IMG/VR virus record: IMGVR_UViG_3300045988_070909 | Span: 78,626 to 142,625 of that record | Source of the DNA: a virus | Strand: one strand, 5' to 3' | DNA: 64,000 nucleotides | In this document: positions 43,613-64,000 of the stretch, piece after piece | How the letters are laid out: each line of letters opens with the position of its first letter | Position numbering within the stretch: the first letter of the stretch is position 1 | Program-made: the position numbers and the translations under genes | Notes under the pieces: model-generated | What the model saw: the letters and a program-made list of their open reading frames with translations, nothing else | Databases searched by the model: none | Told to the model about the DNA's origin: nothing

Positions 43613-44020
43613 TGTTATAAAATTTATAATTATTACTCTTATATGGTTAGGGATTATATATATGGATATTTATTTTCCACTACGAACCCCAGGGGGGTCT
43701 AACGTAGTGGTGGACCGCCACTACACTCACTCTATGAATTTTTGGAATCTAGGTAATTGCCCTCCAAATATAAAAGTCGGAATTTATAATAACCCCAGGG
43801 GGCTATTTATATAAAGTACCTGTACCGGCTTTCCCCTTAATATATAAAATATGTATAATATTTGAATTAGAATTTTTTAACTTTGCGTTTAACTTTTCGG
43901 AGGTTATTGTTGTATATAACTAAAAAGAAAACAATTATGATTACAGACTTAGAAACATTGTTAAATTAGGACTAGTTTAAATAGCTAGTTGAGGCAATTA
44001 ATACGAATCAAGAATATTAT

Positions 44021-44338
44021 ATGTCTGGTAATGGGCTAACTATTAAGTCCGAATCTACCGACGATTCTTTGTTCTTATTAATATCTTATGAAAGATAGAA
44101 GGAAGAAAGCTGTCTAGCTAATGAAGAGGTAGACCAATTCCAGAAATATTTAGAATCTCTAGATGATGATTTATTTATAGATGTATGCGAATATCTAGGA
44201 GAGCTTGAAGTTCATAAAATACAAGAATGCTTAGAAAGCGGCAAGTTAGAAACAGTAAGAGCTGGTATTGCTAAATTCAAAATGGCATTGTCAGATATAG
44301 CTAAAAAGAGAATTGAACAACTGAAAGCTTATGTATGA
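44021..44338 (+). CDS. hypothetical protein with one in-frame TAG
   Basis: ATG 44021 to TGA 44336-44338 is open if TAG (~44093) is read as sense; first plus-strand gene. Confidence 0.45.
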
Positions 44339-44475
44339 ATAGGTTGCTCAAATGAGAATACTATTAGCTAATATCAACGCTACTATGCAGGCTTTATTTC
44401 ACGAAAATGAACAATTAAGAAAAGAACTAGAGAAATTGGCAGCAGAAAATAAATCTCTAAAAGAGAAATAAGTTA

Positions 44476-44548
44476 CTGCCCTATGGTGTAATGGTCAGCA
44501 CAGATGACTCTAAATCATTTAGTCTGGGTTCGAATCCTAGTAGGGCAA
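44476..44548 (+). tRNA. suppressor tRNA (anticodon CUA, reads UAG), Gln-derived
   Basis: Acceptor TGCCCTA/TAGGGCA (U1-A72), D-arm GTGTAATGGTCAGCAC nearly identical to the tRNA-Gln(UUG) at 30390, anticodon stem GATGA/TCATT with loop CTCTAAA. Confidence 0.8.
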
Positions 44549-44565
44549 CGCCAAAATTAATAGTT

Positions 44566-44793
44566 ATGATAAAATTAAATGAGAATTATGTAGTAACTCC
44601 AACAGGAGCTAAAACTCTTATTATAGAAGAGGGAGACGATTGGAATAAAGTTTGTGAGAAGGTAGTTGGAAGTAAGTTTGATTATATCTTTGTACCTCAA
44701 GAATTTGAGAATCAAGCCTGCTATTTTCTTCCGCAAATAACAATTCAAGGAAAACAGATAGGCAAGATATGTACTTATAAGGTATTGAAATGA
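44566..44793 (+). CDS. hypothetical protein
   Basis: Track ORF 44491-44793 trimmed to the ATG after the tRNA. Confidence 0.45.
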   Translation: MIKLNENYVVTPTGAKTLIIEEGDDWNKVCEKVVGSKFDYIFVPQEFENQACYFLPQITIQGKQIGKICTYKVLK

Positions 44794-45104
44794 AACAGTG
44801 TGCAGTTGTATTAAATGGAAATGATGTTGTCAAAGTCTCTAATTTAAAGAGAAAATACGACAAGATAATGAATAACCCTAATATGAAAATATTAGAGGAA
44901 TGTGATATGGAAATGTTAGATGAAAAGTACAACTATTGGAATAGAACATTAAATAGAAATACAGAAGAGGAGAAAAAAGAAGAGACTAAGATGCATCACT
45001 TTAAAAATCCGAAAACTGGATGCTCTATAACAAGTATCTATCCAGATTTGGAAGAATGTAAATCATATATAAAAGACTGGATGGATTATGTTAAACTTGA
45101 TTGA
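44790..45104 (+). CDS. hypothetical protein
   Basis: 104-aa ORF. Confidence 0.5.
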   Translation: MKQCAVVLNGNDVVKVSNLKRKYDKIMNNPNMKILEECDMEMLDEKYNYWNRTLNRNTEEEKKEETKMHHFKNPKTGCSITSIYPDLEECKSYIKDWMDYVKLD

Positions 45105-45591
45105 AAAATATAACGAACTTACTAAATCGGAATTAGAGGAGCTAGCAGAAATAACACTATTAGCTACAGAATCTTTAATTAATACTATTGTAGAAGAAGG
45201 AAAACAAAACGAACAATGGTTCTTAGATTATCTAGACAACTTAAATAAGCTAAGTGTATCGTACTAATATGTCAGTAGCCGCAAATATGATGATCTTCAA
45301 GAATTGAGCGTGAAGAAAGGGAAGTATATGAAAAGGCTCTTAAACTTTTACAAAGAGCTGCAGGAATTTCTGGAGAAACTACAGATGATATAAAAAATTT
45401 CGTATTTGACATTTACATTAATGGCAAAGTACTTAGCAGTTTAAGGGCTAGCTATCCACAATATAGTCTTTCAGATGATTCTTCTATATTATTAGATATA
45501 TGGAATCAAGTAGACCATCAAGTAAGAAATATACTACAACATGGTTTATATAAAGATACTACAATAGAGAAAGCAATTATTAACGACACTT

Positions 45592-60914: not shown

Positions 60915-60918
60915 ACAA

Positions 60919-61131
60919 TATGGGAACAATTTATATTGAAGGACAGTTTAAGAGTTCTGCCAAACCAGTAAAAGTTGTTGGAGGAAGTATAGGAGGAGGC
61001 TCTGGAGTAGACTAGGAAGTTCTCAAGAACTATGCTACTAAAGCAGAATTGTAGAAGGCTGTTGAGGACCTAACTGCTTCCATAGAGGGAATAGATCACG
61101 ATGTAGTTGGTGAAACTTTAATAATACAATG
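60919..61131 (+). CDS. small TAG-recoded protein
   Basis: MGTIYIEGQFK... through 2 TAGs to TGA 61129-61131. Confidence 0.35.
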
Positions 61132-61133
61132 AT

Positions 61134-62970
61134 ATGGCAGCAATCAAATCTATAAAGGTTGGGGAAACCACATACGATTTAAAAGCTACTTACGATGGTG
61201 CTGGAAATGTTATAGATACGACATATGCCAAAGCTAATGCAATTCCAACTAAAACTTCTTAGTTACAGAATGATAGTGGATATTTGACTGAGCATTAGGA
61301 TATTAGTGAATTAGCTACTAAGGGTGAGCTTGAAGGCAAAGTAGATAAGGAGTTAGGAAAGGGACTTTCTGAAGCCAATTATACTGAAACTGAGAAGGAA
61401 AAGTTAAGTACTATAGCTAATAATGCTAATAATTATGTACACCCAACTACTTCTGGAAATAAACATATTCCATCTGGAGGAGCGTCTGGATAGATGCTAG
61501 TTTTCTCAGCAGATGGTACTGCTAAATGGGCAGATTCAAGTTCTAAGCTAGAAGAGCAATTTACAGCACTAAATGAGGCTTGGGAAGAATTGTAGAAGGC
61601 ACAACAAAAGCTTGATAAGTAGGTTACTGAGCTAAATAGTAATATGGATTTATATTCCTATGGAGTAGAATGGGATGTTACAGTAGCATCTCCGGAACTT
61701 ACTAGAATAGGTAATCCTTTGTTGCATAAATCTCTTCCTATTCAGTCAGCGTATAGAGGTTGTGTAGCAAACAATGATGTAGTAAATTACTATCTGTTTC
61801 CAGATGACTGGTCTTATAAAGAAGACGGCGAAACTCCATCTGTCTTAGATGGAACTGATGGAACAGTAAGAGTTAATACTCCTAAATTTTATGGAAAATC
61901 TGGCAGCGATGGAAACAAAAGATGGGTTAGAACTTCTACTGTCAAAATTGATGATTCATGGGTAGAAATTCCTGAACTATTAATAGATGCATACAGAAGT
62001 ACAGTTGATACCACAGTCTCCGCAACTCCAAAAGCTGTATCAGTAGTTAATACTACTACTGCATTTAGAGGTGGAGGAAATAGAGCTAACTACGATGATT
62101 ATCTAACTACAGAATTAGAAACTAAGGATATATTCAGAAGTGATTTAGGAAAGCCTAGAACTAATATTTCTAGAGCTACTATGAGAACATATGCAACAAA
62201 TGCTGGTTCAGAATTGCTATGCTATGAATATTACAAATGGATATTCTACTGGAATTATGTCATTGAATATGCTAATTTTAATTCTTAGGCTGCATATAAT
62301 GCAGAGTTAACTGCAGATGGATATCATCAAGGAGGTTTAGGATCTGGAGTTACAGATTGGGCTAACGCAGCTACAAGTTGGTCAGGGTATAATGCAACAT
62401 ATCCACTTACACCTTGTGGTTACTGCAATGAACTTGGTAACTTCACTGGAGTAAAAGATTTAGTTATTCCAGAATGTACAGCTCAAGATGGCACAAATAC
62501 AGTAGCAACTCATACATTTAAAGTACCTCGCTGGAGAGGATTCGATAATCCGTTTGGAGACATTTGGACTAACCTGGACGGAGTAGTTATAGTGAAAGCA
62601 GCTGCTAATGAGATTAGCACTGTCTATACAACTACTAACATATCGGAATTTACAGACGTAGTTGGAGAGAAAACCGTTGCAGGATACGAAGTAGCATCGG
62701 ATGGTTATATTAAGGCATTTGACTTAGGTGAAACCGCTGAAATAATTCCATCCGCTGTTGGAGGAAGTGCTACTACTTATATTTGCGATTACCATTACTG
62801 CAACGCAAACAGCACAGCGCTTCGCACGCTGCGGGTGGGCGGCGACGCGCTCGCCGTCGGCGTTCTCGATCCACGCAGGCCCTGCGGGTCTCAGCTGTTT
62901 CTTTTCTTTCTTTGGCGTCGACAATGCCTCTTCCACTGTCGGGATCAGGACTCTGAATAGAGTATCTTAA
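61134..62970 (+). CDS. DGR target: tail-fibre/receptor-binding-like protein with C-terminal VR1 (TAG-recoded; apparent frameshift inside the VR)
   Basis: Frame 0 runs from ATG 61134 through track ORFs 61644-62288 and 62592-62960; VR1 lies in the last ~40 codons; the AAY-register continuation ends at TAA 62968-62970. Confidence 0.6.
62838..62943 (+). repeat. DGR variable repeat VR1 (contains a ~19-nt insertion relative to the template repeat)
   Basis: GC-rich island; the 3' ~60 nt align to the template repeat with mismatches almost only at template adenines (one G/A exception). Confidence 0.75.
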
Positions 62971-63057
62971 GATATACAATATAAAAATCGATTTAGATGA
63001 TAAATCGTAGGATATTACTTCTAAAAACCGTTGATTGGCAAAAAAGTACTGCTAGTA

Positions 63058-63144
63058 GGCAGCAACGCGAATAATGGCAGCAATGCAGGTCTCAGCTATT
63101 TCAATTCTAACAATGACGTCAGCAATGCCAATTCCAATGTCGAG
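63058..63144 (+). repeat. DGR template repeat (TR)
   Basis: A-rich non-coding repeat upstream of the RT gene; its in-register translation is Asn-codon rich (GSNANNGSNAGLSYFNSNNDVSNANSNVE). Confidence 0.85.
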
Positions 63145-63287
63145 TTATTATATATTTAGAAACATTTTATTATTTTTTTTTAGTTTGCTAAGTAATATCC
63201 TTGCCTCTAGGCAAAAGATAACGTAGTGTTGAATGAAGGGTGTTAGTAGGTTAATTCTCGAACGCTTCCGATGAAATATATAAAAAA

Positions 63288-64000
63288 TTGAAACGTGTAG
63301 GATATTTGCACGAGAAAGTATACGCTGAAGATAACATCGAACTAGCTGACGATAAAGCCAGAAGAAATAAGTCTATTAGATGTGGAATCAAGCAGCATGA
63401 TAAGAATAGATTAAAAGAAAATAAGGAATTATCCGATAAGTTAAGGGATTTGATTTATCAACCCTCTGAATATAGTACCTTTATAATATACGAACCTAAA
63501 GAAAGATTAATCTTTAGACTTCCATACTATCCAGATAGAATAACTCACCATGCTATAATGAATATTATGGAGCCTATTTGGACTAGTATATTTATAGACC
63601 AAACATATTCCTCTATACGAAATAGAGGTATTCATAAAGTAGAGTATGATTTGTTTAAGGTGTTATAGAAACATCCAGAAGAAACAAAGTATTGCTTGAA
63701 AATGGATATAAAAAAATTCTATCCTTCTATAACTCACGACATTTTATACGAAATGTTATAGAGAAAGATAAAGGATAAAAAACTATTAAAACTGTTGAAA
63801 GAAATAATTTATTCAGCGAAGGGAGTTCCTATTGGAAATTATCTATCACAATTCTTTGCAAATTTATATCTGACATATTTTGACCACTGGGTAAAAGAGG
63901 AGTTAAAATGTAAGTACTACTTTCGATATGCTGACGATATTGTGATTCTTGGTAATGACAAGAATTATTTGAGAAATGTATTAGTATCTATAAAACTATA
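63288..64000 (+). CDS. DGR-type reverse transcriptase (partial, continues past the window; in-frame TAGs at 63667 and 63757)
   Basis: IGNYLSQFFANLYL (DGR-type [I/V]GxxxSQ motif rather than group-II QGxxxSP) and YADDIVIL catalytic motif; the frame stays open across two TAG codons. Confidence 0.85.

Follow-up and report, generated by a model that had tools for sequence, protein, structure and literature searches.

Probable use of two genetic codes in separate blocks of a crAss-like phage genome, with TAG read as glutamine in the late genes

The DNA considered here, referred to as the window, is a stretch of 64,000 nucleotides (nt) of a viral genome (positions 78,626 to 142,625 of IMG/VR record IMGVR_UViG_3300045988_070909). 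It raises a simple question: how can the region between 49 and 62 kb, in which hardly any long open reading frame (ORF) survives in the standard code, encode the terminase, portal and tail proteins that appear to lie there? A first-pass annotation proposed that the codon TAG has been reassigned to sense throughout the genome, most likely to glutamine as in genetic code 15, and that it never ends a gene. The sense reading and the amino acid have held up, but not the extent. Very probably the window represents roughly a third of a Zeta-type crAss-like phage genome of ~185 kb that is written in two codes, an early minus-strand block being standard, and a late block together with a few other genes reading TAG as glutamine by means of a phage tRNA with the anticodon CUA, designated tRNA(CUA).

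In the standard code, ORFs of at least 100 amino acids (aa) cover 20% of the 49-62 kb region, and the longest has 221 aa. When TAG is read as sense, as in a gene prediction with translation table 15, coverage rises to 97%, the longest ORF reaches 793 aa and the reading frame stays constant, which bears out the claim that the region holds long proteins broken solely by TAG. Reading TGA as sense instead brings no gain in ORF coverage there. What emerges is a series of 11 consecutive, tightly packed plus-strand genes (49008-62984), bounded by TAA or TGA alone, with 2-28 in-frame TAG codons in each:

49008-49232, plus strand: small late gene, 74 aa, 2 TAG, one of which is CAA in relative L007
49232-50545, plus strand: late gene, 437 aa, 16 TAG, TAA end
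50577-51143, plus strand: late gene, 188 aa, 5 TAG (phrog_16390)
51146-53509, plus strand: terminase large subunit (TerL), 787 aa, 19 TAG, TGA end (phrog_6681, E 5e-63, in a single stretch over residues 91-712)
53701-55872, plus strand: portal protein, 723 aa, 28 TAG, TAA end (phrog_6547, 1.5e-47; PF16510, 2.3e-6, residues 154-658)
55874-56602, plus strand: late gene, 242 aa, 9 TAG
56615-57346, plus strand: late gene, 243 aa, 4 TAG
57502-59076, plus strand: tail-protein-like late gene, 524 aa, 12 TAG (phrog_788, a weak match)
59076-60914, plus strand: late gene with fibre-like repeats, 612 aa, 21 TAG
60920-61132, plus strand: small late gene, 70 aa, 2 TAG
61134-62984, plus strand: tail protein, target of a diversity-generating retroelement (DGR), 616 aa, 7 TAG (phrog_5302, 2.7e-77)

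Frame 0 of these genes contains 125 TAG codons, 125 CAA plus CAG codons and not one TAA or TGA in 4516 codons; about half of the codons for glutamine are thus TAG. The two other frames hold 177 and 493 TAA plus TGA. TAA and TGA are plentiful off frame and wholly missing from frame 0. The late genes thus admit TAG as they would any sense codon and shut out both other stops, a pattern that is beyond chance. Nine of the 11 late genes end in TAA, two in TGA and none in TAG, with the next gene starting within ~190 nt or less, endings that partly result from the way in which the ORFs were called. Profile matches of TerL, the portal, the tail protein and the DGR reverse transcriptase continue straight across the TAG codons. 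The portal stands exactly where it was first drawn, its two profile matches spanning many TAGs. TerL, initially placed at 51146-53518, is real as well; its end lies at the TGA at 53509. Five of the late proteins, and several genes in the middle of the window, are left without a function by Pfam and PHROGs. With gene 57502-59076 as the query, 35 related loci were found.

Interrupted frames may also arise from assembly errors, pseudogenes, introns or frameshifts, and such causes deserve mention because introns and inteins abound in Zeta-type phages (PMC7886860) and one TerL homolog does contain an intein. Here, TAG is the sole kind of interruption and the frame does not shift. Independent samples yielded more than 40 contigs (61-99% identity) with the recoded architecture, and the same recoding pattern was found in the relatives with 61-98% identity; the 90% cluster to which TerL belongs has 2365 member sequences. 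These comparative data already refute an artefact or decay of the genes, and its probability is negligible.

Which amino acid TAG encodes was judged by comparing codons at the DNA level for all late genes in ~40 or more relatives. A tally of the protein residues aligned with TAG was dropped as circular, the database homologs having been translated beforehand with TAG as Q. At 86 of the 112 TAG sites covered, at least one relative has CAA or CAG. Among the codons that stand in for TAG, CAA (63 sites) ranks first and CAG (58 sites) second, and GAA and AAA come next; codons that differ from TAG by a single base are rare (TAT/TAC 7, TGG 5, TCG 3). Measured as a cosine, the likeness of the TAG substitution profile to the glutamine profile is 0.974, and the next closest, glutamate, is at 0.475. 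Within the DNA of TerL, conserved internal columns exchange TAG with CAA or CAG in both directions between phages (for example with relatives L001 and L004). Against the standard-code relative MT835470.1 (43% identity), Q is found at 3 of 17 TAG sites over a background of 3.8%, a comparison so distant that it is suggestive only. Taken together, the comparison provides strong evidence that TAG stands for glutamine in the late block, as in code 15, in line with the first proposal. For other crAss-like phages, proteomics by liquid chromatography and tandem mass spectrometry has shown TAG to be read as Q (PMC9523058).

A candidate decoder lies ahead of the late block, and the phage also encodes a tRNA that it resembles:

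44477-44549, plus strand: amber suppressor tRNA, anticodon CUA (ARAGORN; Rfam tRNA, 66.3 bits)
30389-30461, minus strand: tRNA-Gln(UUG), the phage tRNA to which the suppressor is closest

The suppressor, the sole plus-strand tRNA of the window, is 71% identical to tRNA-Gln(UUG); positions 5-19 are identical, and the two have U1-A72 and A73 in common. A glutamine identity of tRNA(CUA) is supported, not proven, by this likeness. A CUA tRNA occupies the syntenic position in all of the recoded relatives examined (L001, L003, L004 and L007-L012); none was found in the standard-code relative L005, and the 10 kb around TerL in the standard-code relative MT835470.1 lack a suppressor tRNA. The RefSeq phage cr52_1 has a CUA tRNA, annotated as tRNA-Gln, closely upstream of a TerL with 11 TAGs.

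It may be asked whether TAG could be sense for some other residue, such as Tyr, Lys, Glu, Leu, Trp, Ser or pyrrolysine. ARAGORN labels the suppressor 'Pyl', a label that it gives to every CUA tRNA. The suppressor is only marginally nearer to tRNA-Gln than to tRNA-Thr (71% and 69%), a small gap that weakens the argument from the tRNA, and in the alignment with the distant standard-code relative E, D, K and R fall opposite TAG as often as Q. The codon comparison points firmly the other way: no residue besides glutamine has a profile cosine above 0.475, and CAA, two mutations from TAG, is the commonest alternative, while the single-step codons TAT/TAC, TGG and TCG are rare. With the proteomic finding of Q in related phages (PMC9523058), another amino acid is scarcely credible.

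The reassignment does not extend to the early block. The 56 minus-strand genes between 1 and 43.7 kb have 24 in-frame TAGs in 9792 codons, of which 2.8% are CAA or CAG. Those TAGs either precede the likely start, fall among the last 12 codons, or belong to two endonuclease genes and a radical-SAM-like ORF. Two early genes are particularly informative:

43166-43612, minus strand: early gene ending in TAG (43166-43168) after DFVK, with a backup TGA 6 codons on
18447-19121, minus strand: early gene ending in TAG (18447-18449) after SLIVQ, with a TAA 6 codons on

At the very codon where the first of these stops, relative L012 (93% identity) has TGA, and a paralog at 42225-42683 (minus strand) stops at the equivalent point with TAA. 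For the second, three relatives with 84% identity (L087, L090 and L101) read SLIA followed by TAA at the equivalent end. The assertion that TAG never ends a gene, early genes included, fails at both places. A standard-code (code 11) gene call of the early block gave 54 stops, namely 35 TAA, 13 TGA and 6 TAG, one of the six belonging to a fragment of the GIY-YIG endonuclease gene described below. By these comparisons TAG terminates at least two early genes and probably five. Backup stops follow the early TAG terminators after 6-12 codons, where ~13 would be expected by chance, and no selection for them is claimed. The two paralogs near 43 kb, each of ~150 aa, score highly for coding but match no family, and the 40-43 kb region has matches in the closest sublineage alone.

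These observations bear directly on a reassignment of the whole genome, in which the host itself would use code 15, or the phage would convert the cell immediately, and TAG would never be a stop. The lack of TAG at late gene ends and the internal TAGs of the two endonucleases and the radical-SAM-like ORF on the minus strand are what such a scheme predicts. It is contradicted by the two early genes whose terminal TAG coincides with a TGA or TAA in relatives, by ~5 of 54 early genes with a TAG end in the code-11 call, and by the interiors of the other early genes, which are essentially free of TAG although glutamine makes up 2.8% of codons. Moreover, the hosts on record for crAss-like phages have the standard code (10.1101/2021.08.26.457843). 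Reassignment throughout the genome is therefore very improbable, and the codon counts per block (125 TAG in 4516 late codons, 24 in 9792 early codons) indicate that the early minus-strand block is compatible with the standard code and that the genome is split into blocks of one code or the other.

The boundary between the codes is not simply that between the strands. Recoded genes outside the late block, and the TAG-free genes that lie among some of them, are as follows:

23736-24371, minus strand: GIY-YIG homing-type endonuclease within the tRNA array, 211 aa, 6 TAG, TAA end (PF01541, 6e-13, residues 1-91, a match that spans TAG)
37251-37712, minus strand: PD-(D/E)XK endonuclease between tRNA genes, 153 aa, 3 TAG (PF11645, 2.4e-21, profile positions 2-134 of 138, spanning all 3 TAGs)
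37946-38884, minus strand: radical-SAM-like ORF with one internal TAG that is kept in 6 relatives (Pfam match under the curated cut-off)
43937-44338, plus strand: first plus-strand gene, ahead of the suppressor tRNA, 133 aa, 4 TAG that 6 relatives share
45849-46241, minus strand: recoded gene, 130 aa, 2 TAG, membrane segments (phrog_15610, labelled 'protease')
46238-46429, minus strand: recoded gene, 63 aa, 1 TAG
46505-46846, minus strand: recoded gene, 113 aa, 1 TAG
44790-45104, 45088-45267, 46961-47875 (exonuclease) and 48419-49021 (GroES-like), plus strand: TAG-free genes between tRNA(CUA) and the late block

The GIY-YIG gene was rightly recognised as recoded, but the end assigned to it at 24015 is itself an in-frame TAG, and the ORF continues to a TAA at 23736; the extension past 24015 has weak matches to a helix-turn-helix and to NUMOD1. 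Recoded minus-strand genes had also been noted near 45849-46849, and three are found there, in 45849-46846, interspersed among the TAG-free plus-strand genes of 44790-49021. Just 20 nt upstream of the start of the GIY-YIG gene is an 86-nt tRNA-Cys with an extended variable region (24391-24476, minus strand); an 80-nt tRNA-Met lies at 23510-23589 (minus strand), and a second tRNA-Cys, at 26259-26333, is normal. The long tRNA-Cys and the GIY-YIG region may constitute a mobile cassette of a tRNA plus an endonuclease.

How might the two codes work in one infection? The minus-strand block (1-43.7 kb, with auxiliary genes and ~26 tRNAs) is readable in the standard code of the host. The set in which TAG serves as a glutamine codon comprises the plus-strand morphogenesis block, the DGR, the first plus-strand gene, the three small minus-strand genes and the two homing-type endonucleases. 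A full-length late protein requires decoding of TAG; the early genes do not need the suppressor. The first TAG lies at codon 4-79 in each late gene, and with too little suppressor each late mRNA would terminate within those first 4-79 codons. Very probably TAG is decoded by tRNA(CUA), which derives from or resembles tRNA-Gln. The host enzyme would charge it with glutamine, and it would build up during infection, so that translation of the recoded genes, among them the endonucleases that sit within the early block, would come later. Such an arrangement would time or safeguard the expression of late genes and endonucleases. The timing part of this scheme is drawn from the gene layout and from the literature, where delayed expression of late genes has been modelled (Borges et al., 10.1101/2021.08.26.457843).

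Several observations sit uneasily with this account, in addition to the slender margin between tRNA-Gln and tRNA-Thr. The portal, with 28 TAGs, needs at least ~97.5% suppression per codon for a 50% yield of full-length protein. A Pfam search of 49 early and middle proteins, in a window that is ~1/3 of the genome, revealed no release factor or tRNA synthetase domain. The recoded gene 43937-44338, with 4 TAGs, precedes tRNA(CUA) on the same strand, and a suppressor-type tRNA with the anticodon UUA on the early strand, considered below, blurs an order in which the suppressor comes first and recoded genes later. Nor does the gene for lysis conform. It had been supposed that lysis and homing functions are held back until a suppressor is made; for homing this agrees with the two recoded endonucleases, but the only lysin-like gene of the window (16103-16651, minus strand), which encodes a glucosaminidase domain and an N-terminal hydrophobic segment and belongs to the standard-code block, has no internal TAG past its likely start. 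Finally, the partition into early and late codes would arise neutrally as well, because TAG would accumulate only in genes that are translated while the suppressor is present, and it is no proof of a regulatory role.

That last point can be framed as an explanation in its own right. TAG would mean glutamine without regulating anything; the suppressor would have been acquired for another reason, for instance as a weapon that causes read-through of host stop codons, and TAG would have drifted into those genes that are translated amid it. The positions of TAG along the late genes are uniform (Kolmogorov-Smirnov (KS) test, p = 0.90), and TAG exchanges freely with CAA and CAG among close relatives, as drift would have it. 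Some Zeta phages carry a CUA suppressor without recoding (PMC12386605), and a second suppressor-type tRNA and a phage transfer-messenger RNA (tmRNA) in the window fit an interference with termination. On the other side stand the occurrence of the first TAG within 79 codons in every late gene, and the recoding of mobile endonucleases in the early block whose neighbours are not recoded, neither of which is decisive; Borges et al. read the same pattern as delayed expression (10.1101/2021.08.26.457843). Drift without a regulatory role is possible, if somewhat doubtful. In the late genes (49008-62984, plus strand), CAA and CAG are shifted toward the 3' end, with a mean relative position of 0.61 against 0.49 (KS p = 0.0014), so that the 5' halves more often write glutamine as TAG; the shift may be driven by the Q-rich C terminus of the portal.

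An unusual component of the window is the second suppressor-type tRNA, which forms part of a large tRNA array:

41376-41446, minus strand: suppressor-type tRNA, anticodon UUA, of ochre type (ARAGORN; Rfam, 57.3 bits)

ARAGORN finds 26 tRNAs in the window and Rfam 28, all but one of them in the 12.9-41.4 kb part of the minus strand; the two matches made by Rfam and missed by ARAGORN lie at 22594-22666 and 29400-29476. The array (12926-41446, minus strand) covers most amino acids, with none for Ala or Val among the ARAGORN calls, and homing-type endonuclease genes are interspersed in it. The UUA tRNA has a canonical T loop and A36-A37-A38, and its anticodon loop is identical in 14 close relatives. 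Its counterpart in relative L012 (93%) has the anticodon UAA, and the syntenic minus-strand tRNA of relative L004 (78%) has CUA; these differences among near relatives suggest that the anticodon is evolving quickly. A search for this tRNA or its neighbourhood in more distant relatives matched the same close sublineage alone.

Such a tRNA could read UAA and, by wobble, UAG. Recoding of TAA nevertheless appears unlikely, since most genes stop at TAA (49 of 66 ends, 40 of 55 in the early block and 9 of 11 in the late block) and the genes are tightly packed. A direct scan for TAA as sense gave noise only, because close relatives align in every frame. It is conceivable that the phage manipulates termination with a system of two suppressors in place of a single amber switch, a scheme that we consider unlikely. 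If tRNA(UUA) were functional and expressed early, ribosomes would read through the stop codon that the host uses most; in that event it could also prime a low level of TAG decoding ahead of the main suppressor, and the phage tmRNA could handle ribosomes that run off the ends of mRNAs. Relative to published accounts, the UUA tRNA is an unexplained extra, for which the only precedent found is in the Lak megaphages (PMC8346664).

Two other structured RNAs accompany the array. The tmRNA (20146-20700, minus strand; RF00023, 73.4 bits) has well-conserved tRNA-like ends and ~270 nt more than the model in its middle, and is without an ARAGORN call; it may be relevant to ribosome rescue upon stop-codon read-through. 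A full-length RAGATH-14 RNA (41473-41679, minus strand; Rfam RF03145, 156.6 bits) lies 27 nt upstream of tRNA(UUA) on the same strand. No match to it was found at the syntenic place in L004.

The code-15 genes extend into the retroelement with which the window ends:

62883-62941, plus strand: variable repeat, in the final 100 nt of the tail gene 61134-62984
63084-63142, plus strand: template repeat core, 59 nt, 76% identical to the variable repeat
63255-64000, plus strand: reverse transcriptase ORF, which leaves the window at its end, with 2 TAG (63666-63668 and 63759-63761) (PF00078, E 6.2e-17)

Of the 14 mismatches between the template and the variable repeat, 13 fall on adenines of the template. 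A reverse transcriptase, an adenine-biased pair of repeats and a target gene with the variable repeat at its 3' end are thus all present, as in a DGR. Amber codons have been described in the DGR reverse transcriptases of Zeta phages (PMC12386605).

The idea that the window derives from a crAss-like phage is based on several lines of evidence. The best tblastn matches of TerL, apart from two unannotated records at 43-44% that were set aside, are terminases of Crassvirales, with 25-28% identity over ~80% of the protein, and TerL and the portal are recognised solely by way of phage profiles (phrog_6681, phrog_6547 and PF16510); both proteins thus show the homology expected of a crAss-like phage. 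Full-length TerL homologs with 72-97% identity are carried on metagenomic contigs of 176-195 kb, and IMG/VR contigs of 96-186 kb reach 99.6% identity to the window. A megablast search with 49-64 kb against the GenBank phage collection gave no DNA match of 85% or more; the phage is not among the records there. Placement in the Zeta group is a fit to the published description, with respect to the 176-195 kb contigs, the number of tRNAs, the CUA suppressor, the DGR and a GC content that is 35.7% in the window. The signature genes of crAss phages (MCP, IHF and giant RNAP subunits) fall beyond the part of the genome considered here.

In MT835470.1, the 43% standard-code relative, ORF coverage is 84% and TerL contains no TAG. 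The intein-bearing TerL homolog (P0003, 1131 aa, 86% identity) has Hint and LAGLIDADG domains; the TerL of the window has no intein. Among the auxiliary genes of the early block (minus strand) are those for an NAPRTase-family enzyme (4587-6089), an RNase H (9688-10131), two SPFH/Band-7 proteins (6993-7820 and 8258-9274) and an OmpA-like outer-membrane beta-barrel with a signal peptide (31011-32984).

A practical consequence concerns gene calling. Annotation in the standard code would shatter TerL, the portal, the tail genes and the DGR reverse transcriptase and would cut short the homing endonucleases; a blanket code-15 call would add false C-terminal extensions to early genes that stop at TAG. 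Since both err, gene calling that is aware of blocks is needed. The findings leave current understanding unchanged; they offer a clean and abundant example of dual coding, the TerL cluster holding more than 2300 sequences. Close relatives provide many natural swaps of TAG, CAA and CAG, which suit a study of how host release factor 1 is outcompeted at the 28 TAGs of the portal. The system is equally suited to the question of whether recoding serves as a timing control or follows by neutral drift behind a suppressor.

Genetic code 15, in which TAG is glutamine, was reportedly found in gut phages by Ivanova in 2014. Conversion of TAG to glutamine in blocks is already described for Zeta-type crAss-like phages, including recoded homing endonucleases and a recoded DGR reverse transcriptase, with recoding confined to late genes and suppressor tRNAs present (PMC7886860, PMC12386605). 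Members of the group such as ctoVY1, cthgQ11, 3717_85572 and ctHMy13 are like the window in a GC content of ~35%, in ~26-28 tRNAs that include a CUA suppressor, in reading TAG as glutamine in the late or structural block only, in a DGR that has a tail-fibre target and amber codons in its reverse transcriptase, and in their homing endonucleases. Like the window lineage, whose relatives lie on contigs of 176-195 kb, they have TAG stops with a second stop close behind (PMC12386605). Unlike these phages, the lineage of the window has a tRNA with a TTA anticodon, which is listed for none of the 43 Zeta genomes tabulated (PMC12386605, Table 1).

Among code-15 gut phages more broadly (Borges et al.; PMC9523058), TAG is likewise concentrated in structural genes while replication and auxiliary genes remain compatible with the standard code, and a CUA suppressor, recoded homing endonucleases in early regions, a preference for TAA and a low GC content recur. 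In contrast to the window, those phages may carry a 'code-change module' of release factor 2 (RF2) or a tRNA synthetase, neither of which is recognisable in the window, and the lysin-like gene here is not recoded; RF2 and glutaminyl-tRNA synthetase are optional accessory factors, seen in some code-15 lineages only. For other crAss-like phages glutamine has been shown by proteomics (PMC9523058); here it is deduced from the comparison of codons.

The Lak megaphages (Crisci et al. 2021, PMC8346664) share with the window the change of TAG to glutamine, suppressor-type tRNAs with both CUA and TTA anticodons, and no sign of TAA recoding. They belong to an unrelated lineage with genomes of ~540 kb, some of them with RF2, and in the phages related to the window the UUA tRNA was seen in one sublineage only, near relatives having the anticodons CUA and UAA. 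The dual-coding cases found with Mgcod (10.1101/2022.06.29.495998) similarly combine a standard-code block with an amber-reassigned block. From these the window shows no substantive difference; to their pattern it adds isolated recoded genes within the standard-code block.

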